Shown piece after piece: positions 3,025 through 49,944 of a stretch of 64,000 nucleotides of DNA (its first letter is position 1; each line of letters begins with the position of its first letter). The notes under the pieces were generated by a model. It was not told the DNA's origin. It made no database searches and worked only from the letters and a program-made list of their open reading frames with translations. The DNA is from Bacteroidetes bacterium GWF2_41_31 (lineage in GTDB: Bacteria > Bacteroidota > Bacteroidia > Bacteroidales > F082). The stretch spans positions 4,219 through 68,218 of the forward strand of contig MEOL01000044.1 in the NCBI GenBank assembly GCA_001769215.1. Reading direction: 5' to 3'. A program made the translations under genes and the position numbers.

Positions 3025-3684
3025 CTAATTCTCAGCGGTGCTATAAAGGTAAGAGCTGATTTCGGAACCATTTTGTAAAACGACCGTGGTGTACACGAGC
3101 CCAAAACGGTGATTGACCCGGTATTTGACATTCTTAATGGCCGGGTTGAACCGGCCTGCTCCTTCAATTGTCATCGTTTTAATGTTGTAGAATCCATAAG
3201 GAAAATCATCTACATCAGATTTTGCGGTAACTGTTCGGGTGAAGGTGCCGCCGGTGGAATTTTCGCAGGTATAGGTGTCGCCTACCTTGCCATCGAATTT
3301 GGCAAGAGTGAACGATTTGCCGTCAGCATCCAACTGGTCTGCAATTCCCTCCTTGGTGAACTTCATTTTCAGGTCGCCTGTGAAATTACCGGTAGTTTCA
3401 TCGTAGGTGCCAAAGACAACATTCGACATGGTAGCCGCCAATACCTTGATGTTTGGATCGGTAATGGTTCCGGCCACATGGATCGTTGAAATGCCATTTT
3501 CGAGTTTAGTCACGGTGGCACTTACGTTTGTAATTCCGGATAAGGATGAAATCGAAAAATTATTTCCAACTTCCCCAATGGAAGATTGATCTCCCCCAAT
3601 GTCAGAACTGGATTCTTTTTTACAGCCAATAAACACCAGAGAAGTGATGATGGCAAACAAGGTAATGAAAGCAAGGTTTTTCAT
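3025..3684 (-). CDS. hypothetical lipoprotein
   Basis: Internal start MKNLAFITLFAIITSLVFIGC gives a lipobox-like signal peptide. I recognised no family. Confidence 0.55.
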   Translation of the reverse strand: MKNLAFITLFAIITSLVFIGCKKESSSDIGGDQSSIGEVGNNFSISSLSGITNVSATVTKLENGISTIHVAGTITDPNIKVLAATMSNVVFGTYDETTGNFTGDLKMKFTKEGIADQLDADGKSFTLAKFDGKVGDTYTCENSTGGTFTRTVTAKSDVDDFPYGFYNIKTMTIEGAGRFNPAIKNVKYRVNHRFGLVYTTVVLQNGSEISSYLYSTAEN

Positions 3685-4103
3685 GGGATTTATTTTTATC
3701 CAAAAGTACCATTTTGAAGGCAAAAGTCAATAGGAAAAGTGCTATTTAAAGTGTTTCTATATTATGATATAAAACTGATATCGTGTAGTTTGAAGAATCC
3801 TTTAAGGACCTGTTGTTTGATGGGTAAACGGGTATCAACTGGCCCTCCCGGAATGATTCATTTGGACGTGATTGAAAGGTGAAATTCATGAATGGTTGGC
3901 TGGTAAAGCAACTGTGTTGCACTTGATGTCAGTTAAATGGGACACAATTCATTTTATTTCTGATGGGGTTTTACGATCGCATACAATTCAACGGGATTCG
4001 ATGGGCCGGACTTTTCAAGGGCACTTATTTTTTGAACCCCCATGTAAAAACGAAGGGATAATTCCCTAGATTTACCATCTCAACATCCGATGATCTGTTT
4101 GCA

Positions 4104-5006
4104 ATGAAAATACATTATCGAAATATTTACAATATCCTGATAAAAGCGCTTTCAAAATGGTGGATAAAAGATCCGTTTCGCGAAAGTGCGATAATTGCCT
4201 ATTACGCGATTTTTGCGTTGCCCGGGTTGCTGGTGGTAATTATAACATCTGCCGGGTATTTTTTTGGAAACGATGCTGTAAATAATCACATAACAATCCA
4301 GTTTACATCTACTATGGGCGTTGATACTGCCGAGCAGATTCAAAATATTATTTTGCAGGCCAGCGAAGCAAAAAATTCAGTCCTGGCAACCGTTATCGGA
4401 ATTATTGTCATGATTGTGGGCGCTACCACCGTTTTTGCTCAGTTTCAAAAATCATTAAATACCATATGGGACGTAAAGGTTGATGAATCGAAATATGGTA
4501 TCTGGAGTTTTATCAGGATTCGGTTGTTCTCATTCGGGCTAATCGTTACAATCGCGTTTTTACTTATTGTTTCACTTGTTATTTCCGCTTTGCTTTCGGC
4601 TTTTGGCGATTGGTTATCGGGTCATTTTTCCGAAACATTTTTTATAACACTCCAGGTAGTTAATGTCGTTTTATCTTTTGTAATTATTACAGTTTTGTTT
4701 GCATTGATGTTCAAATTCTTGCCCGATGCAAAAATTAAATGGAATCATGTTTGGATTGGTTCCATTGTTACTGCATTTCTGTTTGATATAGGAAAATTCG
4801 GTTTGGGATTATATTTTGGAAAATTAAACCCCGGCGATGGATATGGCGCTGCAGGTTCGATTATTTTAATCATGCTTTGGGTTTCATATTCTTCAATGAT
4901 TGTTTTTTTCGGCGCCGAATTTACCCGCGCCTATGCCGATTTTATTTCGGGCAGGGTGGTTCCGACAGAAATCGCAAAATCAGATGTTCATTCTGACTCC
5001 GAGTAG
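4104..5006 (+). CDS. YihY/BrkB family inner membrane protein
   Basis: N-terminal IIAYYAIFALPGLLVV motif region, about 6 TM helices and 300 aa, typical of the YihY/virulence factor BrkB family. Confidence 0.8.
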   Translation: MKIHYRNIYNILIKALSKWWIKDPFRESAIIAYYAIFALPGLLVVIITSAGYFFGNDAVNNHITIQFTSTMGVDTAEQIQNIILQASEAKNSVLATVIGIIVMIVGATTVFAQFQKSLNTIWDVKVDESKYGIWSFIRIRLFSFGLIVTIAFLLIVSLVISALLSAFGDWLSGHFSETFFITLQVVNVVLSFVIITVLFALMFKFLPDAKIKWNHVWIGSIVTAFLFDIGKFGLGLYFGKLNPGDGYGAAGSIILIMLWVSYSSMIVFFGAEFTRAYADFISGRVVPTEIAKSDVHSDSE

Positions 5007-5218: not shown

Positions 5219-6331
5219 ATGAATGTATCGTTTCAAAAGCTCTTTTACGCCATAGCTACCGCATTTTTGCTGTTTGCAATACTGGTTTTTGCGAAAGCAA
5301 TTCTCATTCCTTTAAGTATTGCTTTGCTTATTTCATTCATACTGCTTCCGTTGGCAAAAAAGTTTGAGAAATGGAAAATTGGTAAAACACTTGCTGCTTT
5401 TCTCTCCATTTTCGTTATGGTTTTATTAATTGGAGGTGTCACTTACTTTTTTTCAACTCAAATTATTAATGTAGCGCAAGAATTCACAAATTTTCAAGAT
5501 AAAATTATTCGTGCTTTTACCGATGTTACGCTATTTATCAATAACCATGTGAGTATTGTGGAAAATCTGGGAAAGGATGAACTCTTTAACCGGATGAAAG
5601 ACTGGATAACAGATTCAACAGGTTTCCTAGTGAGTAAAACAGTTAGCAATTCAGCTACTTTTATGGCCGGACTGATGGCGACCATTGTTTTTACTTTTCT
5701 ATTCCTCTTATACAGAGATGGATTGACAAAAGCATTTCTGGCTTTTTCGTCCGGGGATAATCATGAAAGGGTATTTAAAATGTTTAAATCGGTTCAACAG
5801 GTTGGACAAAAATACCTGTTCGGGATGGTAATTCTTACGGTTATAATAGGATTAGCCAACAGCATTGGGTTGTTGATTATCGGCATCGATAATCCTTTCC
5901 TTTTCGGATTTTTAGGTGCTGCATTGGCCATCATACCATACATTGGGACTACATTGGGAGCTGTAATTCCTGTAATTTATGCTTTTGTTTCTTACGATTC
6001 AATTTGGCCTGCCATTGCAGTTGCCATATTATTTTGGGCTGTTCAATTGGTTTCCGATAATTTTCTCACTCCACGAATTGTGGGAGGCAGTTTAAAAATT
6101 AATGCTTTAACAGCCATACTTAGTTTGTTTGTTGGCGCTGCAGTATGGGGCCTGGCAGGAATGATTTTGTTTTTGCCTTTTGCTGCCATGTTAAAAGTGG
6201 TTTGCGAAGAGTTTGAAGAGCTTAAACCAATTGCACTAATCATTGGCGAGAAAAATAAAAAAGAAGGCACCGGCAGCGAACTATTTTTGGTTGGTTGGTG
6301 GGGGAAAATTAAATCCAGGTTACACGGATAA
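5219..6331 (+). CDS. AI-2E family transporter (PerM/UPF0118)
   Basis: Multi-TM protein with LTPRIVGGSLKINALTAILSLFVGAAVWGLAGM, characteristic of the AI-2E family. The ATG at 5219 is preferred over the TTG at 5186. Confidence 0.85.
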   Translation: MNVSFQKLFYAIATAFLLFAILVFAKAILIPLSIALLISFILLPLAKKFEKWKIGKTLAAFLSIFVMVLLIGGVTYFFSTQIINVAQEFTNFQDKIIRAFTDVTLFINNHVSIVENLGKDELFNRMKDWITDSTGFLVSKTVSNSATFMAGLMATIVFTFLFLLYRDGLTKAFLAFSSGDNHERVFKMFKSVQQVGQKYLFGMVILTVIIGLANSIGLLIIGIDNPFLFGFLGAALAIIPYIGTTLGAVIPVIYAFVSYDSIWPAIAVAILFWAVQLVSDNFLTPRIVGGSLKINALTAILSLFVGAAVWGLAGMILFLPFAAMLKVVCEEFEELKPIALIIGEKNKKEGTGSELFLVGWWGKIKSRLHG

Positions 6332-6535
6332 TCTTGCCATTTGGTTTACCTGCGATGACAATTGCATACCCAAATTTTTAATCCACCTGTTTGCGGCATG
6401 CCCATTAAAAAACACTCTGATATTGGTTCACGGGCTTCGGTTTTTATACCCTCCCTCCGGAATGACACGCGTGGGTAGTTTTATTTTCCCAATCATGAAT
6501 CCATATTCCTTAAAGTCGCCTTTGTTCAGCATCCA

Positions 6536-6825
6536 GGTATCGGTTAGAGGTGAAATCAATCTCCATAATCCCCCCACATCAGCCCAAAAATAAATCACCA
6601 AAATAATGACTCTAAAAATCAAACCAATAAAATTAATTCTTAGATTTACACGACCAAACACCCGATGATCTATTTACAATGAAGAAGAAGGAAATCGTTT
6701 TAACTAATTATAAATGGTTATAATTGAAGCATATAGTGATAATGAAATTAAATGAAAACTAAAAGGAATTTTACCAACAAATCCTGTATAACAGGCATAG
6801 CGGCAATTGGCGGTATGCAGATTTT
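6536..6825 (+). repeat. conserved non-coding element, copy 1 (5' variant I), upstream of the metallophosphoesterase gene
   Basis: By eye it aligns with copies at 47943, 58921, 8860, 10876 and 61114. The shared core is AAACCAATAAAATTAATTCYTAGATTTAC..CCAAACACCCGATGATC.ATTT.CAATGAAGAAGAA...TAGTGATAATGAAATTAAATGAA...GCATAGCGRCAATTGKCGG. Confidence 0.85.
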
Positions 6826-6987
6826 AATCTATATAGTAACAGGTCTCGATTGAAAACAGGGATAATCCCATGAGTTGATAAATAGGGCTATGATGAATCA
6901 AAAAAAATGAAGACCAGAAATTAATGATAAAACCGAGCGGATTCCGAAAAGCTTTATGAGTAGGAAAAATTAAATAATAAGTGTCCT

Positions 6988-8310
6988 ATGAAAACCATTC
7001 TGCGATTGTTAAGTGCATTTTTTGTGATGATATTCTTAAATGTATTCGCATCATGCGATAAGACAGATCCGACAGATCCTGAAATAAACCCCTTTAGCAA
7101 TGGGGGTAATGAGAGGAATATGATAGTTATTATCAGCGATTTGCATCTCGGCGCCGACCTTGATTATGCCGAATGCAAGGTTAACCTTCCCGCTCTTGAA
7201 AAATTGCTTAAACAGATAAAAGCAGCTCCTGATGTTAAAGAGCTTGTTATCGCGGGAGACCTGGTCGATGAATGGTTTGTACCGGCTACAACAGATACGT
7301 ATCAGGGTAAAGACCAGGCTGATTTTGTACAGCGACTTGCGACAGCCAATAAAGGCGTATTTGATGCAATAAACAGCATCATTCTGGAAGGGAATATTCT
7401 GGTTACCTATGTCCCCGGAAATCATGATTTAACCATTACGGCGGCAAATATTGAAAGTGTCCTTCCCGGGATAAACCAGGTACGCGATGAAGTGCTGGGT
7501 TTGGGTACGTATTCCCCGGCCGACTATCCTAAAATAGCCATTGAGCATGGCCACCGCTACAATTTTTTCTGTGCACCCGATCCTTTTTCAAATCAGGATA
7601 TTGCTCCGGGTACCATCCTGCCTCCCGGTTATTTTTTTACAAGAATTGCCGCTCTTTACGTTCAACAAGGAATGCCGTTACCGGGTGATACCACGCCCGT
7701 TGTAACCCCAAATGTTTCTGGCGGGGAGTCCCAGGATTTATTGTATCGATATTGGAAGATGTGGTATATGACGATTAATACGTTCCCGATAGAAAACAGA
7801 TTTGATGAGAAAATAATACATACAAACGTAAATGGATTCACGGGAAATTATTCAGTTGATGATCTTGTTCCTTCTCAATTATCTCCGGGCGGAATGATTA
7901 ATGTGAATCTCTATAATGGAATTCAGGACAATTGGGAGGCGCGGCAAACCCACAACAATGTGCCTGTACACATTACCACTGCCCATGCAATCGATTCTGT
8001 AGATTCAAGTACCGAGACCGATCACCATGCTAATCTGCAATACTTTATGAATCCCGAATCAGATAAAAGAATTGTCGTATTTGGTCATACGCATGTACCC
8101 AGAATGGATTCGACTGAAAATGATATCAATCAGAAATGTATTTATGTCAATTCAGGAACATGGATTGATCATAACCCGGGTAGAACCACGATGAATTTTG
8201 TAGTCATCACGCCACAGGGCGTTGATGCTTCTTCTCAAACTCTGGTAAAACTTTATAACTTTGAAAATGAAGTTGTAACAAAAATGAAGGAAAACTCATT
8301 GCGCTATTAG
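6988..8310 (+). CDS. calcineurin-like metallophosphoesterase, lipoprotein
   Basis: Signal peptide plus Cys (FASCDK). Metallophosphoesterase motifs ISDLHLG, GDLVDEW, GNHD and GHTHVP are present. Confidence 0.8.
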   Translation: MKTILRLLSAFFVMIFLNVFASCDKTDPTDPEINPFSNGGNERNMIVIISDLHLGADLDYAECKVNLPALEKLLKQIKAAPDVKELVIAGDLVDEWFVPATTDTYQGKDQADFVQRLATANKGVFDAINSIILEGNILVTYVPGNHDLTITAANIESVLPGINQVRDEVLGLGTYSPADYPKIAIEHGHRYNFFCAPDPFSNQDIAPGTILPPGYFFTRIAALYVQQGMPLPGDTTPVVTPNVSGGESQDLLYRYWKMWYMTINTFPIENRFDEKIIHTNVNGFTGNYSVDDLVPSQLSPGGMINVNLYNGIQDNWEARQTHNNVPVHITTAHAIDSVDSSTETDHHANLQYFMNPESDKRIVVFGHTHVPRMDSTENDINQKCIYVNSGTWIDHNPGRTTMNFVVITPQGVDASSQTLVKLYNFENEVVTKMKENSLRY

Positions 8311-8525: not shown

Positions 8526-8760
8526 ATGAATCAAAAAAATCATCTTTCAGACATCATAATATATCAAACTGAAGACGGAAATACAAAAATTGAAACTCGG
8601 TTAGAAGATGAAACTGTTTGGCTTACAATTGACCAAATGGCAGAACTTTTTCAAAAATCCCGCTCAACAATTAATGAACACATTCTGAATATTTACGAAG
8701 AGAAAGAACTTGACACAGAACAATCTATGAGAAAAATCGGAATTTCCGATTTTTCCGGAA
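8526..8760 (+). pseudogene. N-terminal fragment of a RhuM-family protein
   Basis: IIIYQTEDGNTKIETRLEDETVWLTIDQMAELFQKSRSTINEHILNIYEEKEL is the typical RhuM N-terminus. Similarity stops after about 75 aa, and the ORF then reads through REP hairpins and repeat sequence to 8930. Confidence 0.6.
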
Positions 8761-8820
8761 GTAAGTTGTCCTATTTTGGGGGACAAGCTCCTCTCAGCAA
8801 AGTTTCATGCTACCATGCCT

Positions 8821-8845
8821 CCTGCCTTCGGCAGGTAAACCTGCC
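8821..8845. repeat. REP-like nested hairpin (CCTGCC-TTCG-GCAGG / GGCAGG-TAAA-CCTGCC)
   Basis: Overlapping perfect palindromes read directly. It belongs to the same family as 10814, 14874, 44548 and 59844. Confidence 0.8.
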
Positions 8846-8859
8846 GACTAGTGCCACTA

Positions 8860-9198
8860 CCCTGTCATATTATTCCAAAGCAACTCTTTCTAAATTGTGC
8901 GCAGTTAGTGAATCGGAATGTGATACCTAAAGCATCCCGATAAACTTATTACCAAAACCTGACAAACAACTCCATAAATTCTTAACCCCCAATGTAAAAC
9001 CAAAAGTATTAATTCTTAGATTTACCCCACCAAACACCCGATGATCCATTTACAAGAATAGTAGAAACCGGATTAACAAATTATAAACGACTATGATTGG
9101 ACAATTTAGTGATAATGAGATTAAATGAATACTGAAAGATTATTTTACAACAAAGTTTATATAATAGACGTAGCGACAATTGGCGATATACGGATGTT
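8860..9198 (+). repeat. conserved non-coding element, copy 2 (5' variant II)
   Basis: It shares CTTATTACCAAAACCTGACAAACAACTCCATAAATTCTTAACCCCCAATGTAAAACC plus the common core. It ends at GATGTT, 96 nt before ATG 9295. Confidence 0.85.
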
Positions 9199-9294
9199 GT
9201 GTGGCATTAACCAGGGGTTCGCAACATTAGGAGTTATCTAAAATAACAAAATTAAACAGGACTTTTATTAAATTTTTAACCAAAAACATAAAAA

Positions 9295-10755
9295 ATGCTC
9301 AAGACTCTTATTTACGCAACTATTTTTTTATTTGTAAGCCAGGCTTACTCTCAGGGTCAAATAAAACAAATTGATTATGGAAAACTTCTTTTTAATTCAT
9401 ATCCAACATATGATATGGTTGTTGATCTTGGAGAAGGTAAATTTGTAATGCCAATTGTAACACTAAAAAAACAAGCTTTACTTGATTGCTATAGTTATGA
9501 TTTACAGAAGATTTATAGTACACCTTTTAGGCAGTCCATCAATTCAAAAAAAGACAAATTTGCTTTAATTACATCATTTCATGAAAATTCAAAGACGCTA
9601 TATGCATTAAGGCAGGATAATTCAAATAATAAGTATTTCATTGAATATCTAAAAATTGATCCGAAATCAGGTAAAACAATTGATCAGGAAATACTTTTAA
9701 AGGACCAGCAGTTCCCAAATGCGTATTATTTCTCCGATAATAAAGAATATTTTGTTGTTATACCTCTAATTAGTTTAAATGGTCTATACGAATATGAGCT
9801 ATTCAATTATAAAGGAGAAAAATTGTACACCTCAATAATAGAGAACAAAGAAGCTCAAAGTTTTTCTGGCTTATTAAATGTAATGACAGTTTCTGATCAT
9901 GGTGACGTTTATGTTGAACGCAGACTTGATGAAGGACACTATTCATTCGATGCTTTTGATGTTTCCGGGAAGGAGATTGTAAGACTCCCATTAAAAATTG
10001 AAAGTAAAAATGGAGAAGTTGTCGATCTTATTATGACTAAATCCGGCGATAGAGAGATCATAGTTACAGCATTACTCGGAGATAAAAAGAACTTTGAACT
10101 TAAAAATTGGGTTATTGATTTCAAAAAACAAGAATTGCAGTTGATTAGTTCTTTTGACATCAATGAAGAAATAATTGGCAAATATATGGCCAGTCTTGAT
10201 AAGGCTCAGATAGTGAGTGTTAAAACACCAAAACCAACCAATAATTTCAAGGACTTAAGTATAGTAAAGATACATTACGTGGAAGGCCAGATAATTGCTG
10301 TGCTTGAATCATATGAATACACAAGGGGAATGCTTGGAACAACTAGTGCGTGGGGTACAAGTAACGATACATATATTATTTCAACAAAATTGAATGGTGA
10401 TTTGAACTGGGTATTTGCGTTACCGAGAAAAGTTGCTCAAAGTCTGTCAAAATATAAATTATTTGGGCCAATGGGAGAAACGGTTAAAGTAAAAACTGAT
10501 GTAATTGATGGTGTTTTAAAAGTTATTACAACGGAAAATTACTCAAATGGAAATTACGGCTATGAAGTACTTAGGGAGATTGATTTATCAACGGGTGAAG
10601 TATCATTTCCAAAAAGATTGCAAAATAAAGAAAATGCAGTATTTGATTTTTCATTTTATGACTACTACAAATGGATAAGTACTGATGAAATAATAATGAT
10701 GACAGCAAAAGGATTTGGCTTTAAACTAGTCAAGATTAATACAAAAAATAAATAG
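9295..10755 (+). CDS. hypothetical secreted protein
   Basis: Signal peptide MLKTLIYATIFLFVSQAYSQ. The gene is AT-rich, and I recognised no family. Confidence 0.6.
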   Translation: MLKTLIYATIFLFVSQAYSQGQIKQIDYGKLLFNSYPTYDMVVDLGEGKFVMPIVTLKKQALLDCYSYDLQKIYSTPFRQSINSKKDKFALITSFHENSKTLYALRQDNSNNKYFIEYLKIDPKSGKTIDQEILLKDQQFPNAYYFSDNKEYFVVIPLISLNGLYEYELFNYKGEKLYTSIIENKEAQSFSGLLNVMTVSDHGDVYVERRLDEGHYSFDAFDVSGKEIVRLPLKIESKNGEVVDLIMTKSGDREIIVTALLGDKKNFELKNWVIDFKKQELQLISSFDINEEIIGKYMASLDKAQIVSVKTPKPTNNFKDLSIVKIHYVEGQIIAVLESYEYTRGMLGTTSAWGTSNDTYIISTKLNGDLNWVFALPRKVAQSLSKYKLFGPMGETVKVKTDVIDGVLKVITTENYSNGNYGYEVLREIDLSTGEVSFPKRLQNKENAVFDFSFYDYYKWISTDEIIMMTAKGFGFKLVKINTKNK

Positions 10756-10813
10756 CGCCACACCGCAATGCATTTACTTCATGGAAGTATACAGTCTGAA
10801 CCTTTCTGACTAC

Positions 10814-10848
10814 GGCAGGTTCACCTGCCTACGGCAGGTAAACCTGCC
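10814..10848. repeat. REP-like tandem hairpins GGCAGG-TTCA-CCTGCC-TAC-GGCAGG-TAAA-CCTGCC
   Basis: Two perfect 6-bp stems read directly, with a third pairing possible between them. Confidence 0.8.
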
Positions 10849-10875
10849 GTGGGTAGATAAACCGACATACAAGTT

Positions 10876-11243
10876 CCCCTGCGCTGTCATATTATTCCCA
10901 CGCAATTCTTCCTAAATTGTGCGCATTTATTCAATCGGATGGTGATACCAAAAGCATCCCGACAAACTTGTTACCAAAACCTGACAATCGAATCCGTAAT
11001 TTCTTAACCACCAATGTAAAACCAATAAAATTAATTCCTAGATTTACACCACCAAACACCCGATGATCTATTTACAATGAAGAAGAATGAAACCGATTAA
11101 ACAAATTATAAACGACTGAAATTGAATAATGTATTGAGAATGAAATTAAATAACTACCAAAAGGAACTACATCAACTGTACCCTTATTATATATATAGCG
11201 GAAATAAACACAATAGTAAGGTAGTTAGCACGTAGTTAGCTGC
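10876..11243 (+). repeat. conserved non-coding element, copy 3 (5' variant II, divergent 3' end)
   Basis: It aligns with copy 2 from CCCTG..GTCATATTATTCC through the core. It ends in GTAGTTAGCACGTAGTTAGCTGC, 20 nt before ATG 11264. Confidence 0.8.
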
Positions 11244-11263
11244 AACTTTAACAAAGTACATAT

Positions 11264-12307
11264 ATGAATAATAGTTCGAGTTCAAGTGTCTTAACAGTAT
11301 TTTATTCGTGGCAATCAGATCTTCCTCCGGAAAATAATAAAAAAGCAATAAAAGGAGTATTAAGAGATGTATTTACGAATATTGAAGAGGAAATTAATGA
11401 ATTGGAAATATTTCTTGATGAAGCCACAAGAAATACTGCTGGTAGTCCAGATATACCATCAACTATTTTTGATAAAATTGAAGCATCTGATATTTTCATT
11501 TGTGATCTTACGACAATAAACAGTGACTCACCAATAGGAACAAGAAAAGTTCCAAACCCAAATGTTTTAATCGAATTAGGTTATGCAATAGCTTTATTAG
11601 GTTGGAATCGAATTATCATGCTATTTAATAAAGCACACGGTATTTTTCCAGATGATTTACCATTTGATATTGCAAAAAGACGCATTACAAATTTCAAAAT
11701 GGAAAATGGAAATGATAAAAATTCAAAAGGAAACATACAAGCAATTTTAAAAAAAGCGATAATAACCATCATCGAACAAAAACCAGTTAAACCATTTGAA
11801 AACAAAGGTTTAAAACCTCTTGAAAAAAAAACTAGAAGAGATATTACAAATATCGTTTGGGCTCTAAAAACTATTAACATACCTATCTTGGACGAATTCA
11901 TTTCGGAGTTGCCTTTTAAAATCAACAGTAAGATATTTCATTTTTGGGAAGGATTTAACGGAGTAATAAATAGCAGTCTATTTCATGTATATGATAATAC
12001 AGTTATGTTATTATTTAAAGAAATACATACTCATTGGGAAAACACCTTATCATTTGGACATAAATATAACGCAATAGACAAATTTGGCAATGCTATATTT
12101 GGAAGTCCAGATGATCCACGAACTGACCAAAGAACACAAGATGATTATAAATTTATTGGCGAAGAAAGAATAAAATTAAAAAATGATTTTCGGACAATAT
12201 TGGATTATATAAGAATTAATTATATAGATATTGACTTGGAAGAAACGAGTCAATATGCTCTCGATGAGTATAATAATTTTTATAAAGGATTCCATTCAAA
12301 TTACTAA
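11264..12307 (+). CDS. TIR-like / nucleoside 2-deoxyribosyltransferase-like N-terminal domain protein with an unknown C-terminal domain
   Basis: N-terminus VFYSWQSDLP .. SDIFICDLT .. NPNVLIELGYAIALLGWNRIIMLFN resembles the Rossmann-like TIR/NDT/SLOG superfamily pattern. I did not recognise the C-terminal ~170 aa. Confidence 0.5.
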   Translation: MNNSSSSSVLTVFYSWQSDLPPENNKKAIKGVLRDVFTNIEEEINELEIFLDEATRNTAGSPDIPSTIFDKIEASDIFICDLTTINSDSPIGTRKVPNPNVLIELGYAIALLGWNRIIMLFNKAHGIFPDDLPFDIAKRRITNFKMENGNDKNSKGNIQAILKKAIITIIEQKPVKPFENKGLKPLEKKTRRDITNIVWALKTINIPILDEFISELPFKINSKIFHFWEGFNGVINSSLFHVYDNTVMLLFKEIHTHWENTLSFGHKYNAIDKFGNAIFGSPDDPRTDQRTQDDYKFIGEERIKLKNDFRTILDYIRINYIDIDLEETSQYALDEYNNFYKGFHSNY

Positions 12308-12314
12308 AAAAGCA

Positions 12315-12438
12315 GCAGCTAACAAAGATGCATATACTTTATGGCGGGTTACGTTATGAAAATGAGTATTTTAGTTCCAAATATAAATCATGGTAGACAG
12401 AAAGATTTGTCTTTCAAAGTCCGACACAAAGCATATGC
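12315..12438 (+). repeat. direct repeat S1 (upstream flank of the R-M unit)
   Basis: GCAGCTAACAAAGATGCATATACTTTATGGCGGGTTACGTTATGAAAATGAGTATTTTAGTTCCA...GACAGAAAGATTTGTCTTTCAAAGTCCGACACAAAGCATATGC recurs at 14812-15018. Confidence 0.85.
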
Positions 12439-12533
12439 ACGCCCGCTAGAGTCAATTTAAAGTGCGTCAGCGTAATGAAATACTTGATTTAAAAACACTA
12501 TTTTTGAAAAATTGCATTACTTAAAAAACTCTC

Positions 12534-13283
12534 ATGAAGAAATTAGATTTATCGAAAGTAAAGAAATATGTTGAGGATAATGTAGGTGAGTTCCACCAAA
12601 AAAGGATTGATAAGCTTGGACTATTGAAACTAAAAGATGTTTTAAGAAGAAAAAACCCTTATTTATTTAAGGCGAAAAATATTATGACAGCTCAAGAATT
12701 GATACAAGGAGTTGTTGATGCATATATTTCTTCTAGTGAAGAAGGGATTTTTGGGAATTGGCTTGAAGGATTAGCCGTATTCGTTAACAGACAAGTTTAT
12801 GGTGGTAGAAAATCTGGAATTCCGGGCGTTGACCTTGAATTTGACAAGGATAATATTAGATATATTGTTTCGATTAAATCAGGCCCAGACTGGGGAAATG
12901 ATGACCAAATTAAAAAGATGGTTGATAATTTTAACTCTGCACGAAAGGTCTTAAAAACATCAGGAGCCCAAATTAATGTTACTGCCATTAATGGTTGTTG
13001 TTATGGAAGGACAACACAAAGAAACAACTATAAGCCTAAAGGTGATTATTATAAATATTGCGGTCAAGTATTTTGGAGTTTTATCTCAGGAAATAATGAA
13101 TTATATAAAGAAATAGTTGAACCTCTTGGATATCTTGCAAAAGAAAAGAATGATGATTATTTGAAAGCATATGCACAAAAAATAAATCTTTTTACAAAAG
13201 AACTGGCCAATGATTTTTTTAAAGATTCTGGAGAAATTGATTGGGATAAGCTGCTCGAATTTAATTCAAAAGGAAATATTTAA
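12534..13283 (+). CDS. putative type II restriction endonuclease
   Basis: It lies immediately upstream of, and co-oriented with, a C5 DNA methyltransferase. A PD-(D/E)xK-like segment GVDLEF..IVSIKSG is present. I could not determine the family (Eco47II/TdeIII/PmeII-like) by eye. Confidence 0.55.
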   Translation: MKKLDLSKVKKYVEDNVGEFHQKRIDKLGLLKLKDVLRRKNPYLFKAKNIMTAQELIQGVVDAYISSSEEGIFGNWLEGLAVFVNRQVYGGRKSGIPGVDLEFDKDNIRYIVSIKSGPDWGNDDQIKKMVDNFNSARKVLKTSGAQINVTAINGCCYGRTTQRNNYKPKGDYYKYCGQVFWSFISGNNELYKEIVEPLGYLAKEKNDDYLKAYAQKINLFTKELANDFFKDSGEIDWDKLLEFNSKGNI

Positions 13284-13344
13284 TAATTTGCCAAAATTTT
13301 TGATAAAATCTAGCAAAAAGTATCTAATTTTGGTACTTTAATAT

Positions 13345-13360
13345 ATTTCGTTAACGAAAT
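13345..13360. promoter_or_regulatory. perfect 16-bp palindrome ATTTCGTTAACGAAAT, candidate operator
   Basis: The palindrome was read directly. It ends 15 nt upstream of the methyltransferase ATG, and that protein carries an N-terminal HTH. Confidence 0.4.
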
Positions 13361-13374
13361 TAAATAAGGTACCT

Positions 13375-14793
13375 ATGATAAGTGTTGAAGATGCATCAAA
13401 GAAATTAAATATTTCTCCACAGCAAGTGAGAAATCTGTGTAGGTCTGGAAAACTAAAAAGCGAGAAAGTTGGTAATACTTGGGTAATTGAGGATTCAATT
13501 CTTGAATACTATTTTGATACAACCTGTTCAGGGGTTGCAGAAGACCAAGTGAAATATGAAAAAACACCAGCCTCTAAAGAATCTCCTATAGCTTTGAGTT
13601 TTTTTAGTGGAGCTATGGGATTGGATATAGGCATTGAAAAAGCTGGTTTTAGAACAATATTTGCGAGCGAAATCAATAATGCTTGTAGAAAAACGATATT
13701 AAAAAATAAGCCAGAAATAAATCTAATTGGTGATATTAGAGATTATACGTCACATGAAATTCGTAATATATCGGGCTTATCTGAAAATGATGATATTGAT
13801 TTAATTATTGGAGGACCTCCTTGTCAATCTTTTAGTACCGCTGGAAAAAGGAAAGGTTTTGAAGATGAAAGAGGAAATGTTTTTCTCACATATATAGACA
13901 TAATAATTGCTCTTAGACCTAAATATGCTGTTATTGAAAATGTTAGGGGATTATTATCAGCGCCTTTAAAACATAGACCTCATAATTATAGAGGAGAAGG
14001 TTTTGAGGAATTAACAGAAGATGAATTACCTGGAGGAGCTTTAAATCATATCATTAAGAAATTAAAAGACAGTGGATATGCTACTTCATTTAATTTATAT
14101 AATTCAGCCAATTTTGGAACGCCACAAAAAAGAGAAAGAGTTATTTTAATATGTTCAAGAGATGGTAAAAAAGCTCCTTATTTAGAACCAACGCATTCTG
14201 AAAATGGAAATTTTAATTTGCCTAAATGGAAAACTTTTAGAGAGACAGTTAGTCATTTAGAAAATTGTCAACATGATTATATCAATTTCCCTGACAAGAG
14301 GTTACAATATTATAAACTTATAACACAAGGAAATAATTGGCGAAGTTTACCGATCGACCTACAAAAGAAAGCGATGGGAGCATCATTCTTTTCAGGAGGT
14401 GGCAAAACTGGTTTTCTAAGGAGGTTGGCTTGGGATGAACCAAGCCCAACACTATTAACTCATCCAGCTATGCCAGCAACGGATCTTTGCCATCCAGAAG
14501 AAAACAGACCACTAAGTATCCAAGAATATAAAGCAATTCAAGAATTTCCAGATGGTTGGAAAATAGAAGGAAGCATTCTTGAGCAATATAAACAAATTGG
14601 AAATGCTGTACCAGTAGGTTTGGGTTTTGCAGTAGGCAGTTTATTAATGAAATTAATCAAGGGGGTAAAAATTAAGAACTATATTGGCTTCAGATTTTCA
14701 AGATATTTAAATACTGATGAATTAAATTGGAAAAGAGACTTTGATAAGCAGAGAAAGATCGAAATTCAAGCTCAATTAGAGTTGCAAACATAA
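13375..14793 (+). CDS. DNA (cytosine-5)-methyltransferase with an N-terminal helix-turn-helix extension
   Basis: C5-MTase motifs I FFSGAMGLDIG, IV GGPPCQSFSTAG, VI ENVRGL, VIII QKRERV and X GNAVPV are present. The first ~50 aa (ISVEDASKKLNISPQQVRNLCRSGKLKSEKVGNTWVI) look like an excisionase/MerR-type HTH. Confidence 0.92.
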   Translation: MISVEDASKKLNISPQQVRNLCRSGKLKSEKVGNTWVIEDSILEYYFDTTCSGVAEDQVKYEKTPASKESPIALSFFSGAMGLDIGIEKAGFRTIFASEINNACRKTILKNKPEINLIGDIRDYTSHEIRNISGLSENDDIDLIIGGPPCQSFSTAGKRKGFEDERGNVFLTYIDIIIALRPKYAVIENVRGLLSAPLKHRPHNYRGEGFEELTEDELPGGALNHIIKKLKDSGYATSFNLYNSANFGTPQKRERVILICSRDGKKAPYLEPTHSENGNFNLPKWKTFRETVSHLENCQHDYINFPDKRLQYYKLITQGNNWRSLPIDLQKKAMGASFFSGGGKTGFLRRLAWDEPSPTLLTHPAMPATDLCHPEENRPLSIQEYKAIQEFPDGWKIEGSILEQYKQIGNAVPVGLGFAVGSLLMKLIKGVKIKNYIGFRFSRYLNTDELNWKRDFDKQRKIEIQAQLELQT

Positions 14794-14811
14794 TAGAATA
14801 AAAGGGAAACT

Positions 14812-15018
14812 GCCGCTAATAATGCATATACTTTATGGCGGGTTAAGTTGTGAATATAAGTATTTTAGTTCCACTTATCTGCCGGTTTACCTACCTTCAT
14901 GCCTTCGGTAGATAAATCGGTAGGTGAACCTACCGTAGGAACGGAGGCAGGAGGCATGAAATATAAATTATCTTGGACAGAAAGATTTGTCTTTTGAAGT
15001 CCGCCACAAAGTGTATGC
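14812..15018 (+). repeat. direct repeat S2 (downstream flank of the R-M unit), interrupted by a REP-like insertion
   Basis: It is collinear with S1 except for about 86 nt at 14874-14959, which carry REP hairpins bounded by TTCATGCC...GGCATGAA. Confidence 0.85.
14874..14959. repeat. REP-like hairpin cluster inserted in S2
   Basis: Contains GGTAGG-TGAA-CCTACC (14919-14934) and an 8-bp terminal inverted repeat TTCATGCC/GGCATGAA. This segment is absent from S1. Confidence 0.75.
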
Positions 15019-15159
15019 TTCCCATTAAATAAGGAATTTGAGATGAACCTACCGAAAATGAATGGAATTTTGTGCTTTCAGTCATTTCTGCAATACCTGT
15101 AAATCCCGCTTTTGAGGCGTAATAAGTGATTCGTTGATTAACAACAACTGGCCGTAACG

Positions 15160-15540
15160 CTATCTGAATACCACCAATAACCCACCTGTAATAAAGGCCA
15201 GTACCCACCAAATGTAGGCGTATCTTGAATAAAGATGCAGTTTTTTGGGTACTTCTGAGTTCATGCCTGATCGGGCAATGAGTTTCCACATGAAAATGGC
15301 GTCCATCATCATGCCCAGCAAGGAGGAATAACCAATAAAACCATGCAGGGTAAAACCGCCTTTATTCGATCCAATGATCATGAAAATGGTAGCCGTAATA
15401 TCCAAAAGAACCCCCAGCGTTAGAAATGTAATCACCCGTTGGCCAATATGTCTGGTCCGCTGTTCGGTTATAATTCCAATGGAGTAGGCTATCAAAGCGA
15501 AAAATACAACGCTGCTGCCAATTTGTAGATAGGTATTCAT
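15160..15540 (-). CDS. small integral membrane protein (4 TM), function unknown
   Basis: 126 aa with hydrophobic helices. I am not confident of any family assignment. Confidence 0.6.
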   Translation of the reverse strand: MNTYLQIGSSVVFFALIAYSIGIITEQRTRHIGQRVITFLTLGVLLDITATIFMIIGSNKGGFTLHGFIGYSSLLGMMMDAIFMWKLIARSGMNSEVPKKLHLYSRYAYIWWVLAFITGGLLVVFR

Positions 15541-15652: not shown

Positions 15653-17656
15653 TTACCTGCCAATAAACACAACTCTTTTACCTATGGAACTTAATCCGGT
15701 CAACGCGTCTTCGGTAGCGAAGATCCTGGTCAGTTCTTTCAACTCCGATTCACAACCTGAGGCTTCGTTAATCAGCTTTTCAGCTGTTTGCAAGGCAAGA
15801 GGAGCTTTTTGACCTATCTTTTTTGAGAGTTGCTGAGCTTCCTCAACAGGTAAAAAATCATTTTCTGATATTCCTGAAAGTATTTCATTTACAGAATATT
15901 GATCAAAAAATGAACTCAATGCATTAAAATGACCGCTTAAATTGGATTTCCTTTTTTCGGGTATCGCTTTGTAGCCATGCAGAACATCAAACAGGTCGGC
16001 GGGGTCGATGATGGCATCGATCAGTCCCATTTCTAAAGCAATCGTGGAATTAATAAATTGCCCTGTATAGATTAAATATTTTGTTAAGCCTTTGCCAATT
16101 TTCTGCGCTGTTCGTTGTGTGCCGCCGAGTCCGGGATAGATGCCTATGCCCGTTTCAGGAAACGCCATAACAGCCTGTGGCAGGGCGAGGACCGTATCAG
16201 CGCAAAGGGCCAATTCGAGTCCGCCTCCCAGGGCAAGACCGTTAAGAACCGCGACTACATTTTTTGCCGAGTGATCAATTCTATCATACACCTGTTGACC
16301 GAATTTTGAAAACAATTCGATATCTTTAAGCTTTCCTGCTTTCATATTTTTAACGAAAAACCGGATGTCGGCACCCGCTACAAATGCTTTTCCGGTCCCG
16401 GTAATAAAAATGGTGCTGACCGCAGGGTCGGCCTCTGCATCGCTGAATTTTTGGTCCAACTGTGCCATCACCGTTTCGTTGAGTGCGTTCATATCCTCCG
16501 GCCTCGACATGGTGATGGTCGCTAGCGCGCCGTCTTTTTCAAGGCTCACATAATCCAGGTGCCATTTTTGCACTTGAATGCCGCGGGGTAGTTCCATTTT
16601 ATATAACCTGGCTATTTTTTTTACTAACCTGTTCACTTCTTCAACACCGAATTTCAGCATTAAATCAATGGGGCCCAATCGCCAACGCAAGCCTATCCGG
16701 GCACCTCTGTTCAAATCAGAAGCCGAACATACATTTTCGGCCAGTATCTGAGAACAAACGAAGAAAACAACTCCTGCCATTCGTTCGGTAATCAGTTTTT
16801 CAAGTTCGCTGCTGACGGCAGCATTTTCTATGTCTCCCAAATCCCATGGATTACCTGATTCAGCCTGTTTTTGTAATAATGGGCACGTATGGTATAAATT
16901 CCCAAACACTTCCAGGGTTTTTTGAGCGTGATAAGCAATGGGAACGCCTGTGGCATTCATCAATGCAAATGGCCCCATTCCAATTCCAAAGAGTTTCATG
17001 CAGACCTTTTCAACCTGAGGAATGGTAACTGTTTTTTCTTCGTATAACCTGACGGCCTCGTTTAACCAGGGTACAAAAAACCTGTTAACGGCAAAGCCGT
17101 ATGTGTCGGCAGTTGTGATGGCGTCTTTACCTGCCAGAACAGAAAATACCTGCATGGTTTTATATGTTTCAGCAGAAGTCTCTTTACCCGGGATGATCTC
17201 AACCAACCTGTTTTTGGCTGCATGGTAAAAATAGTGCAAACCTATAAAACGGGCAGGATTTGAAATGGATTTGGAGAGTTCTGTAACAGAGAACGATGAG
17301 GTATTGGTGGCGATGATGGTATCCTGACCGACGATCGAATCCAGTGTTTTAAAAAGTTCGCATTTAGCGTCAAAGTTTTCGAAAATAGCCTCCACGATCA
17401 AATCACAGGCTTTTAATCGTTCAAGCTGATGCGTTCCCGAGATGTTCGAAACAATCGATTCAACTTGTTTTGCTGAGAATAGTCCGCGCTCAACACCTTG
17501 ATTTAAAATGTCTTTTATTCCGTTGATTCCTTTATCAACATATTTCATTTCCCTGTCGGCAAGAATCACCTTAAAACCTTGTTGAGCAAATTTTTGTGCA
17601 ATTGCCGAGCCCATGGTTCCTGCGCCAACAACACCTACCGTGTTAATTTTTTTCAT
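15653..17656 (-). CDS. bifunctional 3-hydroxyacyl-CoA dehydrogenase / enoyl-CoA hydratase
   Basis: N-terminal NAD fold VGVVGAGTMGSAIAQ (3HCDH). The C-terminal crotonase domain shows ITGTGKAFVAGADI .. LALGGGLELAL. Confidence 0.85.
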   Translation of the reverse strand: MKKINTVGVVGAGTMGSAIAQKFAQQGFKVILADREMKYVDKGINGIKDILNQGVERGLFSAKQVESIVSNISGTHQLERLKACDLIVEAIFENFDAKCELFKTLDSIVGQDTIIATNTSSFSVTELSKSISNPARFIGLHYFYHAAKNRLVEIIPGKETSAETYKTMQVFSVLAGKDAITTADTYGFAVNRFFVPWLNEAVRLYEEKTVTIPQVEKVCMKLFGIGMGPFALMNATGVPIAYHAQKTLEVFGNLYHTCPLLQKQAESGNPWDLGDIENAAVSSELEKLITERMAGVVFFVCSQILAENVCSASDLNRGARIGLRWRLGPIDLMLKFGVEEVNRLVKKIARLYKMELPRGIQVQKWHLDYVSLEKDGALATITMSRPEDMNALNETVMAQLDQKFSDAEADPAVSTIFITGTGKAFVAGADIRFFVKNMKAGKLKDIELFSKFGQQVYDRIDHSAKNVVAVLNGLALGGGLELALCADTVLALPQAVMAFPETGIGIYPGLGGTQRTAQKIGKGLTKYLIYTGQFINSTIALEMGLIDAIIDPADLFDVLHGYKAIPEKRKSNLSGHFNALSSFFDQYSVNEILSGISENDFLPVEEAQQLSKKIGQKAPLALQTAEKLINEASGCESELKELTRIFATEDALTGLSSIGKRVVFIGR

Positions 17657-17712
17657 TTTATCGTGTGTATGAATAATTGAATTAATTCAAAGGGTTTCAT
17701 GCTTAAAAGTGG

Positions 17713-18486
17713 CTATGAATTTTTCCATTCGGGTTTTCTTTTTTCCATGAATGAAAGGATGCCTTCATTGGCATCATGCGTTTCCATCAGCTCTTTGATG
17801 AAAACCTTCTCCAGCTTCCTGAGGTTTTTTCTGAACAGTTTATTTAAAATAATCCGGCCCGAACGGACTGAATACCTCAAAGAACTGGCACTTTTGGGAA
17901 GTATGTGTTTTTGAATCCAACCATCAGTTTCCAGAATCAGGGTTTCCTTGTCCTCATAAACATGGTTTAGAAGCCCGATTTTTTCAGCCTCACCGGCATC
18001 AATTGTTTTTCCGGTAATTAACAATTCCTCGGCCCTGGCGCTACCAATTTTTAGTGGCAACAAAATGGAAGCAGGCGGCGGGAACACGCCCAGCATAATC
18101 TCAGGCTGACCGAGTTTTGCAGTGCTATCGGCAAACATGAAATTGCAGATTAAGGCAAGTTCGTGGCCACCACCAAGACATTGGCCCGAAATTTTTGCTA
18201 AAGTCGGAATCGACAAATTGACCAGATTGTAAAACATCCCGTGAAAGCTGTGAAGCATTTCCGCAACCTGGTCTTTGGTATGTTCTTCAACCGATGCCCC
18301 GAAGGAAAAGTGTTTTCCGGCACCTTCAAAAGTAATGATTTTAAGATCCGGCTTTTTCTTAAATTCTTTGAACAGTTGGTTTAATTCCCGCATCATGATG
18401 CTGTCCAAAACATTTCCTTTGCCATCGTTCAGGATGATTTCTGCCACCTGACCATCGTATTTATAATTGAGTTCTACCTTTTGCAT
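17713..18486 (-). CDS. dch: enoyl-CoA hydratase family; candidate cyclohexa-1,5-diene-1-carbonyl-CoA hydratase
   Basis: Crotonase fold of 257 aa with GAGKHFSFGASVEEH. It sits next to oah and had in a bcr cluster. The specific function is inferred from context. Confidence 0.55.
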   Translation of the reverse strand: MQKVELNYKYDGQVAEIILNDGKGNVLDSIMMRELNQLFKEFKKKPDLKIITFEGAGKHFSFGASVEEHTKDQVAEMLHSFHGMFYNLVNLSIPTLAKISGQCLGGGHELALICNFMFADSTAKLGQPEIMLGVFPPPASILLPLKIGSARAEELLITGKTIDAGEAEKIGLLNHVYEDKETLILETDGWIQKHILPKSASSLRYSVRSGRIILNKLFRKNLRKLEKVFIKELMETHDANEGILSFMEKRKPEWKNS

Positions 18487-19634: not shown

Positions 19635-19667
19635 CTTTTTATTTTTTATTGATTAATATTCAATTAT

Positions 19668-47657: not shown

Positions 47658-47942
47658 TTATGATTAGTGATGTTGGTTTCTGCTTGTTTCGTGACAATCA
47701 TGCCTTGCTCATGTTCATTTATTTTTAATCATTTGGTTGGCTAAAATACAAAATTTGCCTGAATGCTTGTGCGAAAAATAATTGGTAGATAGATAGATTC
47801 ATGGGATTGTGAATTATAACTTGTAAGGCCTTTAATTCAACAATTCACAAATCGATAAACGAATGCTGGTTAAATTCTGGCAACCAGGCTATGTTTTGTT
47901 TGAAGTTTAAGAAAACGGTAGTTGATACCGGTTAGGGTTGTT

Positions 47943-48228
47943 GGTATAGGGTTTTAGACGTGAGATCAATCTCAATACCCCACATCGCCCAAAAGTAATT
48001 CACCAAAATAATGACTCTAAAAATCAAACCATTAAAATAAATCCCTAGATTTACCCCGCCAAACACCCGATGATCCATTTGCAATGAAAACAAAGAACCG
48101 ATTTAACTAATTATAAACGGTTATGATTGGATAATATAGTGACGATGAAATTAAATGAATACTAAAAGGAATTTTAACAACAAAGGCTTTATAATAGGCA
48201 AAGCGACAATTGTCGGTTCACAGATGTT
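47943..48228 (+). repeat. conserved non-coding element, copy 4 (5' variant I)
   Basis: It aligns with copies 1 and 5 along the full length. It contains the perfect palindrome CGACAATTGTCG (48204-48215) and ends at GATGTT, 35 nt before ATG 48264. Confidence 0.85.
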
Positions 48229-48263
48229 GGGTACAATTTTACGAAAGACAACAAAACAAACCA

Positions 48264-49271: not shown

Positions 49272-49466
49272 CAGCAGCTTCCCAAAAGTGGCAGTTCAAT
49301 GGTTAAATCATCCCGAAGCTTGCGGGATTGTGCTTCTATCAAGGTTTGCGGTATATTTGCAGTGAAGTGCTTCGAAATCGCCACCTTCGTATGCAAAACA
49401 TTATACACATGGTTGAGTACCCAAAATCCAACCCATGGATGAATAGAAATTAAAAAAGTAAGTCCT

Positions 49467-49757: not shown

Positions 49758-49812
49758 GGGGGGGGATTGTCCCATTTGTTGGAGGGTGGAGTTAAAGCAA
49801 TCACCTGAGACT

Positions 49813-49852
49813 GGCAAGCCTTAGAATTTTTTTAAGAGCTCTAAGGCTTGCC
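49813..49852. terminator. 13-bp perfect hairpin between convergent genes
   Basis: GGCAAGCCTTAGA-N14-TCTAAGGCTTGCC. The loop is T-rich and there is no trailing U-tract, so it is not a canonical intrinsic terminator. Confidence 0.4.
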
Positions 49853-49944
49853 CTAGATCAGGAACATTATTAATGGTATTGCCACAATTTTACAAGAAAA
49901 GGTTTCTTGCTTTTAAACCTTGTTGCGTTCTATAACTCTGATAG

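Follow-up and report, generated by a model that had tools for sequence, protein, structure and literature searches.

What kind of system assembles accessory genes between copies of a repeated element is the question raised by a 64,000-nucleotide (nt) stretch of contig MEOL01000044.1 from Bacteroidetes bacterium GWF2_41_31, referred to here as the window. It contains three arrays of such genes, at about 6.5-15.0 kb, at 47.95-49.4 kb, and from 58.9 kb to the window end. A sequence-only reading of the window had suggested an integron-like cassette system with giant attC-like sites. We consider it likely that these are integrase-less mobile cassette arrays, served by an integron-like site-specific recombination system of uncultured Bacteroidota. 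The ends of the cassettes, their junctions and the folding of their sites all speak for that suggestion, but not for a system of the canonical IntI type, as the recombinase associated with such arrays elsewhere lacks the insertion specific to IntI. The three arrays resemble clusters of attC sites lacking integrases (CALINs); the one at 9-15 kb has four sites recognized by the end rule given below, and no recombinase gene.

Copies of the repeated element were searched for with a sequence model built from the window copies and applied to the window and to 28 stretches of four metagenome-assembled genomes (MAGs), three of them labelled Bacteroidetes or Bacteroidales and the fourth a Melioribacteraceae bin of short contigs. 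Comparison loci, 41 in all and numbered with the prefix L, come from MAG and metagenome contigs. HGW-Bacteroidetes-16 (HGW-16) is represented by L013 and L009, and Bacteroidales MAG C24_maxbin.026 by L027. A recombinase was flagged in eight loci: L031, L032/L033, L034, L036/L037, L038, L039, L040 and L041. All modules, sites and cassettes located below by window coordinates lie on the plus strand.

Cassette-specific complementary ends

Inspection of the window confirmed every string and coordinate cited in the sequence-only reading: GATGTT at 9193, 48223 and 61472; GATTTT at 6820-6825; GTTAGCTGC at 11235-11243 and GCAGCTAAC at 12315-12323 in a unit encoding a TIR-like protein; GTTGTGTGGC at 9196-9205 and GCCACAC at 10757-10763 in a unit encoding a secreted protein; and TAAC-type strings at 14812, 49266, 59784 (CCGCTAAC, after a cupin gene), 60895 (ACCTAAC, after the gene for a 293-residue protein) and 63702. 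The model search found 44 copies of the conserved element, a module of about 220 nt. Some 23 of these, from the window and the four MAGs, are full length and could be aligned. They have two types of tail: alpha, ending ..GGTATGCGGATG/TT (longer form ..AGCGACAATTGGCGGTATGCGGATG/TT), and delta, ending ..GTTAGCACGTAG/TT (longer form ..GGTAGTTAGCACGTAG/TT), the variant at 11235. Similarity halts at G/TT (the slash marks the break) in every full-length copy, as had been claimed for GAT/GTT. Past the break lie seven variable bases that begin with a purine; they are followed by (C)ATTTTAAAA, a semi-conserved string that the earlier reading had missed.

That reading also held that the unit-specific bases after GTT are the reverse complement of those at the 3' end of the same unit. 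For the TIR-like unit, the reverse complement of the 13-mer at G/TT is matched at 11/13 positions, with a probability of about 5e-4 of a match arising by chance within some 35 positions after the stop codon. The APH unit matches at 10/13 (about 9e-3), the secreted-protein and Crp operon units at 9/13 each (about 0.04 and 0.08), and the restriction-modification unit at 8/13 (about 0.2), while a search after the stop codon found no significant 3'-end complement in the metallophosphoesterase, cupin and 293-residue units. Ten other loci were compared for a same-strand downstream match to the 13-mer at G/TT, which reaches 12/13 in four, 11/13 in three and 10/13 in one, and was absent from the remaining two. 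Most of these matches directly border a conserved site arm on its 5' side, N7-(T)AAC/AATGCATATACTTTATGGCGGG, so that the position of the match is defined apart from the match itself.

Across 15 cassettes from the window and the four MAGs, cognate ends agree at 5.73 of 7 variable positions, as against 2.69 of 7 for non-cognate ends, and 0 of 200,000 shuffles of the end pairing gave a sum as high as the one observed. This permutation result bears out the claimed complementarity and, together with the match statistics for the window, puts it far beyond chance. Nine of the 13 box positions covary (1, 2 and 4-10), and position 3 is a C opposite an A in 14 of the 15 cassettes, a mismatch on the top strand but a G·T pair on the bottom strand. 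The end rule is therefore written 5'-NNC-N7'-AAC ... G/TT-N7-ANN-3'. Of the paired core proposed earlier, the complementary GTT and AAC boxes stand; the length of 7 nt does not, the box being 13 nt long, with AAC-N7-AAC facing GTT-N7-ATT. A well-formed cassette consists of TT-N7-ATT, one to three co-oriented genes of low GC content, AAC-N7'-AAC, and a site body that runs to the next G. The bounds that characterize integron cassettes, ..AAC and GTT.., with 5' bases that complement the cassette's own inverse core, are found here.

The statement that every accessory unit is followed by an RYYYAAC-like string was too strong, since TAAC occurs within 30 nt of the stop codon in five of eight units (7/34 core genes; p = 0.03). 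A generic scan for GTT..AAC inverted 13-mers was noisy in AT-rich DNA, with 1006 observed and about 700 in shuffled sequences; with a signature filter the counts were 114 and about 58, and the only convincing instances were 7/7 matches tiling beside recombinases.

Cassette content at fixed junctions

HGW-16 contains an array orthologous to that at 4-15 kb of the window, with the same flanks, BrkB and AI-2E on the left and a gene for a 126-residue protein and FadB on the right. Its units encode a 348-residue protein, the metallophosphoesterase shared with the window, a 435-residue protein and a 730-residue protein. The sequence-only reading had named an invariant unit order across strains as evidence against its proposal; in the orthologous array the cassettes are different ones, and the junctions are exact. 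The right flank, TTAAATAAGGAATTTGA.., starts at TT in the window (15025) and in L009, and in L030 as well, give or take one base, while its left partners in the three are unrelated. L039 and L040 share the same recombinase protein and the 171 nt after its gene, with one base change in that stretch, and split into different cassettes immediately past ..AATTG/TTG. This comparative evidence places strand exchange between G and TT, the integron position, and both pairs (window and HGW-16, L039 and L040) show cassette content differing between strains.

Rightwards of the left edge of module E (described below), identity between the window and L027 is about 98%; to the left of that edge the two are unrelated. 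Comparison of window positions 47658-47950 with L027 at about 5822-6410 points to a rearrangement that broke at the edge of the module, or else to a chimeric assembly.

The complementary ends might instead work in RNA, with pairing between 5' and 3' untranslated regions serving mRNA stability or translation rather than DNA recombination. Both boxes do lie within the likely transcript, and the A-rich stretch after the seven variable bases is like a Bacteroidetes leader; yet genome differences that fall exactly at G/TT, differing cassettes at orthologous loci, and arrays that abut a recombinase gene are all left unexplained, and we find this explanation scarcely credible.

Structure of the recombination sites

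Site length varies between 30 and about 590 nt; most sites of the family measure about 144 nt. In the window, sites s1, s4 and s2 span some 147-229 nt, and giant sites 482-587 nt. Giant attC-like sites, a main point of the sequence-only reading, are present in the window, then, but are not typical of the family. Site s1 (12311-12457, 147 nt) consists of a 3' box, a 5-nt spacer, a long imperfect stem in which TGCATATAC.. pairs with ..GCATATGCA, another 5-nt spacer, and G/CTAGAGTCAATT. Site s2 (14808-15024), the last of its array, ends A/TT at 15024/15025 and is s1 with a GC-rich hairpin-repeat insert of about 86 nt, so nested loop insertions are tolerated.

Giant site D (10754-11235, 482 nt), delimited by repeats, model match, alignment and folding, comprises a 3' box, an s-type 5' arm, GGCAGG hairpin repeats, a type II module, the module core, and a delta tail ending CGTAG/TT. 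Three more sites are based on repeats and alignment, C and G on the model as well. Giant site G (60889-61475, 587 nt) has a 3' box region, type II modules, a core, and an alpha tail, GATG/TT. Site C (8798-9196) has hairpin repeats, a type II module, a core and an alpha tail, ends with G9196 of G/TT, and lacks its 5' half. Site H (63695-64000), cut by the window end, has type II upstream modules and no core. The long conserved body attributed to the sites exists, but it is a separate module nested in some of them rather than part of the site itself. A rhuM-like open reading frame (ORF) at 8526-8750 (+) is truncated where the type II module of site C begins.

The site of the TIR-like cassette, rebuilt with the cassette's own 5' end (147 nt), has a predicted fold in which a 5x5 unpaired spacer separates an end stem of 9-10 bp from a long inner stem that pairs imperfectly and is capped by a variable loop; no end stem forms when the native, non-cognate neighbour stands in place of that 5' end. 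For a giant site rebuilt from the body of D and its cognate 5' end (494 nt), the end-stem probability is about 0.9, compared with 0.0 next to the native neighbour. A hairpin that brings both ends together, as the sequence-only reading had called for, is therefore what these rebuilt sites are predicted to form.

At the short extreme, L005 has at 974-1003 a minimal site of 30 nt between two cassettes, AACGGTGGCTAAC-AGCC-GTTTGCCACCATT, which amounts to the boxes and a 4-nt loop, with the stop codon of the upstream gene inside the 3' box. GC-rich hairpin repeats of the form CCTGCC-TTCG-GGCAGG-TAAA-CCTGCC are nested in window sites at 8800-8826, 10805-10848, 14880-14950 and 59850-59915; they look like a small element, similar to repetitive extragenic palindromes, that targets site loops. 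L014 has tandem 11-nt CGATTTACCTG units at 3300-3350.

A giant site could also be read as two things, an ordinary site (about 150-170 nt) and, behind it, an independent promoter cassette that lacks an ORF and consists of the core with a short site of its own. L031 does contain ORF-less units of 387-388 nt, promoter-active ORF-less cassettes are known from Treponema-type integrons according to work cited in PMC8618304, and an internal GCGCAG/TTAGTGAATCGG pairs loosely with CCGATTTAAC of the core (11/13 in site D). Against such a division, internal inverted 13-mers are no commoner than in shuffled sequence, the core has no conserved hairpin, module boundaries vary among copies (for example, H and G), and what the copies at array heads have in common is confined to the 3' two-thirds of the element. 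We regard it as unlikely. Internal R'/R'' pairs inside giant sites were likewise rejected, as they do not exceed chance.

The module as a predicted promoter and attachment site

The module is found at array heads, upstream of some resident genes, and nested in the loop of many cassette sites, and is always oriented towards the downstream gene. All copies found are upstream of co-oriented genes, many of them beside housekeeping genes, with varied points of truncation; about 20 copies have the 5' block alone (..CCTAGATTTAC..CCAAACACCCGATGATCC..) and then run straight into the gene. This 5' block is the most conserved part and includes TAGATTTAC, which fits the Bacteroidetes -7 promoter motif TAnnTTTG. 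As for a promoter of the integron Pc type, the sign seen was the motif TAnnTTTAC, which is present in the module core and was read by eye, in the similar form TGTAnnTTTACA, in L031, L036 and L039, shortly 3' of the recombinase gene and more than 100 nt before the crossover.

RNAalifold found no conserved secondary structure among 22 module cores (-0.3 kcal/mol), and the sole match in the window to Rfam at gathering thresholds is an unrelated DUF805 motif. A structured RNA was rejected on these grounds, and a leader peptide because the upstream ORF, MKKKE.., lacks an ATG or in-frame continuity in many copies.

The delta tail at 11196-11235 is identical at 24-28 of 40 positions to the recombinase-proximal sites when anchored at the crossover, the best being 28/40 for site D and the recombinase-adjacent site in L032; a shifted control gave 11.2 identities (standard deviation 3.0, maximum 19). 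Alpha tails are less close than the delta tail to the recombinase-proximal site. Gapped local alignment of whole cores with recombinase-proximal regions was not significant (z mostly below 2), which leaves the crossover-anchored comparison as the only significant likeness between the two. From the absence of an RNA fold or ORF, the motif in the 5' block, the orientation and the delta-tail likeness, we infer that the module is probably an outward-facing promoter of Bacteroidetes type with an unstructured A-rich leader (TAGATTTAC..) and an attI-like 3' end, in effect an integrase-less platform. A nested module would supply the following cassette with a promoter of its own.

Four modules in the window lie outside the sites listed above. 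A partial one (5' block only, 4040-4103; model match 4040-4129) runs into the ATG, at 4104, of the resident BrkB-family gene, an arrangement repeated in HGW-16 at L013:1408-1501. Type I module B, with core and alpha tail GAT(T)/TT (6540-6823; model match 6613-6829 and full-length alignment), precedes a DUF805 RNA leader and the metallophosphoesterase gene (6988-8310), for which no complementary 3' end was found. Type I module E, with core and alpha tail (47951-48226; model match), has G/TT at 48226/48227. Type I module F (58930-59131; model match 58994-59131, to model position 140) has a truncated tail joined to the cupin unit, ..GAAATT/TTAGCG, with no significant end match.

A simpler account would make the module a dispersed promoter-bearing repeat, akin to a mobile promoter or a miniature inverted-repeat transposable element (MITE), with homologous recombination shuffling the genes and the inverted ends being terminator remnants. 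It suits the 44 copies, all upstream of co-oriented genes, many by housekeeping genes and variously truncated, but homologous recombination does not predict junctions fixed at G/TT across genomes, nor cassette-specific complementarity with a fixed mismatch, and arrays that obey the end rule without the repeat (L031, L036) go unexplained. We judge this account very improbable. A transposon or MITE with terminal inverted repeats was rejected outright, as the inverted ends differ in every unit. No associated transposase was found, the one DDE gene among 29 flanking ORFs being unrelated, and a direct repeat occurs at the APH unit only.

A tyrosine recombinase at the head of related arrays

A protein search found a homologue of the TIR-like cassette (78% amino acid identity) on a 4.45-Mb contig, at 9971-11072 of L031. 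Its ends are the same as those of the window cassette over 16-18 nt, G/TTAGCTGCAACTTTAA ... AAAAAAGCAGCAGCTAAC, although the site bodies differ. The locus holds 12 consecutive cassettes that follow the end rule, with uniform sites of about 144 nt, and these start 172 nt after the gene for a co-oriented 483-residue tyrosine recombinase. The HGW-16 array ends in a site of the family found in L031. Full-length homologues of the recombinase (43-80% identity) form at least 120 clusters at 90% identity in metagenomes, and come from MAGs labelled Bacteroidota, Bacteroidetes or Bacteroidales.

In 8/8 loci the order is the same: housekeeping genes, a small divergent gene, the recombinase gene, a spacer of 150-175 nt, and a site ..TAG/TT(R)N6. 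Co-oriented accessory genes follow in seven of the eight; in L032/L033, the same site is followed by the housekeeping genes purK and purE. The accessory genes encode Fic/VbhA, HNH, AbiH, PLD and TIR_2 proteins, a MmeI-like enzyme, and an EcoRI methylase with GmrSD. The recombinase is tied to the system by this association in other Bacteroidota contigs.

The recombinase has the catalytic set R-K-H-R-H-Y. Compared with IntI1 and XerD reference sequences, it has a unique N-terminal extension of about 200 residues. It scores 172 bits against the integron-integrase model TIGR02249, below the cut-off of 265. Of the proteins with solved structures, VchIntIA matches it best, over two stretches, with XerA and XerD next, and by sequence the protein groups with Xer (XerA, XerC, XerD) and IntI.

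The small divergent gene, always just upstream of the recombinase gene, encodes 119-141 residues with no confident Pfam match (L031 3406-3783; L032 9504-9872; L034 9513-9872; L036 9480-9857; L038 9433-9858; L039 9375-9740; L041 9463-9834); its product could be a partner or regulator of the recombinase. The recombinase-linked array of L031 also includes a pair of units without an ORF, 387 and 388 nt long, whose ends match perfectly at 7/7 (14863-15262 and 16171-16571), and a reverse transcriptase (RVT_1) gene at 19019-20611. In L039, a second Phage_integrase-family gene, for a 283-residue protein (17148-17999), lies within the array downstream of the 483-residue recombinase.

Could these be canonical integron arrays, CALINs served by an ordinary IntI elsewhere in the genome, with the 483-residue recombinase a bystander? 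The AAC and GTT boxes, the G/TT crossover, the hairpin geometry and the array organization are all integron features, and a low incidence of integrons has been reported for Bacteroidota, Chlorobi and Ignavibacteriae (PMC9024848, PMC8618304). A bystander, however, would not be expected at a fixed 150-175 nt before the first G/TT of the array in seven loci, with the same site and no cassettes after it in an eighth, nor would two samples (L039, L040) be expected to part exactly at the recombinase-proximal G/TT. A gene with the IntI insertion was found in 0/41 loci, and the paired box of 13 nt with a fixed mismatch is not RYYYAAC/GTTRRRY. We therefore think a canonical system quite improbable. Xer/dif (pdif) modules were also rejected, the arms being cassette-specific seven-base stretches rather than a conserved 28-bp site.

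In the integron-like system that we favor, the two ends of a cassette in an excised circle would pair as a 13-bp stem, in which the conserved mismatch reads C·A on the top strand and G·T on the other. The stem would close a hairpin with a loop of 4 nt to about 470 nt, and strand exchange by a tyrosine recombinase would fall between G and TT, the point at which IntI acts on attC.

Points against the integron-like reading

Several observations weigh against this reading. No tyrosine recombinase, or recombinase of any kind, was found in the 64-kb window, so the enzyme would have to act in trans. None was found in loci L002-L030 either, nor among 29 ORFs, made up of those upstream of 11 array-head modules and all five in L011; these are housekeeping genes, and an integrase beside the array heads was accordingly rejected. 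The 220-nt module is itself absent from the recombinase-linked arrays examined, so that the link between the window and the recombinase rests on the end rule, one cassette, one site family and tail homology. The promoter activity of the module is predicted from motif and position. Several window units are weak or wanting in end complementarity (metallophosphoesterase, cupin, 293-residue and restriction-modification); those with unmatched ends may be decayed units or resident genes. The APH site, s4, folds poorly. As the sequences are MAG and metagenome assemblies, chimeras induced by repeats could account for some of the differing flanks, the one to the left of module E for instance.

The enzyme raises a further difficulty. 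Aligned with IntI1 and XerD references, the recombinase lacks the IntI-specific insertion (I2 helix region) and so is not a canonical IntI; the gene adjoining the attI-like site does not encode an IntI with this additional domain. The I2 helix is thought to be needed by IntI for single-strand recombination (PMC7790495), and recombination of single-stranded hairpins at end-rule sites, suggested here by analogy with integrons, would have to proceed without it.

The broader interpretation is put forward only tentatively, as possible rather than probable: a widespread Bacteroidota analogue of the integron, run by a Xer-like recombinase with a novel N-terminal domain and no I2 helix, in which orphan modules (promoter plus attI-like end) seed integrase-less arrays at many chromosomal loci and the modules nested in cassette sites let each cassette bring a promoter to the neighbour downstream of it. 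If it is true, hairpin-site cassette recombination arose, or runs, in a second way.

Cassettes of the window

A GC content of 28-34% is usual for the cassette genes, the exceptions being those of the cupin and metallophosphoesterase units at 40-42%; most of the flanking core genes compared are at 41-46%. In the first array, the metallophosphoesterase unit is common to the window and HGW-16, and no 3' box matches either version of its 13 nt. The DUF805 RNA motif at 6902-6970 (+) (Rfam RF03081, 58 bits) precedes this gene and not a DUF805 gene; a similar leader stands before the gene for the 348-residue protein in L013, at about 4280-4345. The 13 nt from the alpha tail to the shared leader are unrelated in the two genomes (TTTAATCTATATAG at 6823-6837 of the window, TGATCCAACAGAC at 6272-6285 of L013).

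The secreted-protein cassette (9197-10766; GC 31%) encodes 486 residues with no assigned function, and its 5' end, TTGTGTGGCATT, and 3' box, AGCGCCACACCGC at 10754-10766, match at 7/7 variable positions. The TIR-like cassette (11236-12323) has the 5' end TTAGCTGCAACT and the 3' box AGCAGCAGCTAAC at 12311-12323; its 347-residue product matches the CAP12/Pycsar TIR domain weakly (E 2.7e-5, just below the Pfam cut-off). Next comes the restriction-modification cassette (12446-14820), which by Pfam encodes an EcoO109I-type enzyme and a C5 cytosine methyltransferase, with the 3' box AACTGCCGCTAAT at 14808-14820.

The second array consists of module E and the APH-family kinase cassette (Pfam) with site s4 (48227-49424), in which the 3' box is AACTGTGCCTAAC at 49260-49272 and the next G/TT is at 49412/49413. 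The 5' end of this cassette (48225-48233, GTTGGGTAC) and the next crossover (49412-49420, GTTGAGTAC) are near-identical direct repeats, seen in this unit alone. A truncated ORF at 49467-49790, possibly a fragment of a secreted or sensor protein, has no Pfam match; downstream of it come some nine consecutive G and then a strong hairpin, at about 49810-49855.

In the third array, the cupin and 293-residue units (59132-60901; genes 59204-59770 and 60008-60889) have site s3, with hairpin repeats, between them, and may be decayed, as their end matches reach only 7/13. The last cassette (61476-63707), with the 3' box ATACTATCGTAAC at 63695-63707, carries three genes that by Pfam encode a Crp-like regulator, an FAD monooxygenase and a 132-residue membrane protein.

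A plasmid or phage origin was rejected, as sites D and s1 had no match in plasmids and searches of viral contigs gave no exact match to the module core. The window has no tRNA gene that a search could find.

Relation to known systems and significance

In its workings the system is like a chromosomal integron accompanied by satellite CALINs. Shared with these are arrays of co-oriented, low-GC accessory and defence genes; cassette bounds of ..AAC and GTT.., 5' bases that complement the cassette's own 3' box, and a G/TT crossover; sites predicted to form imperfect hairpins, in which an unpaired spacer divides the end stem from the inner one; homogeneity of the sites of one array (about 144 nt each in L031); and cassette content that varies beside the recombinase, with integrase-less clusters elsewhere in the genome. 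It differs in the IntI test, the box rule, the site sizes and the nested modules. The recombinase lacks the I2-region insertion, carries the N-terminal extension of about 200 residues, and is co-oriented with its array. The boxes that pair span 13 nt and include a fixed C·A mismatch, where integrons have the core RYYYAAC/GTTRRRY, and sites measure 30 to about 590 nt, many with a nested promoter-like module, where attC measures 57-141 nt. There are also many array heads per genome, beside housekeeping genes.

With Xer-dif and the pdif modules of Acinetobacter, the system shares a recombinase that groups with XerA, XerC and XerD, and modules bounded by inverted sites. Those are conserved 28-bp double-stranded sites with fixed arms, however, whereas the arms here are cassette-specific and complementary across a loop of 4-470 nt. 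Internal promoters in long integron arrays relieve the dependence on a single Pc promoter, according to PMC8618304 (and its references 15 and 16); unlike such cassette-borne promoters, one predicted-promoter module here recurs inside recombination sites and also heads arrays. Our literature searches found no description of such a system.

The 13-bp, sequence-free and structure-defined site rule is a possible recombination tool. The I2 helix is regarded as an innovation that enables single-strand recombination by IntI (PMC7790495), and a recombinase without it would be a natural test of that requirement. Sites containing a promoter-like, attI-like module offer a concrete model for sustained expression of long arrays, and may show how new cassettes and array heads originate, an open question in integron biology. 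Integrons have been described as rare or absent in Bacteroidota (PMC9024848, bioRxiv 10.1101/2024.07.02.601686). The cargo of the cassettes examined includes restriction-modification, TIR-like, Fic/VbhA, AbiH, PLD and GmrSD genes. If the system is active, this phylum would hold a large reservoir of cassettes that surveys based on IntI and attC models have missed.

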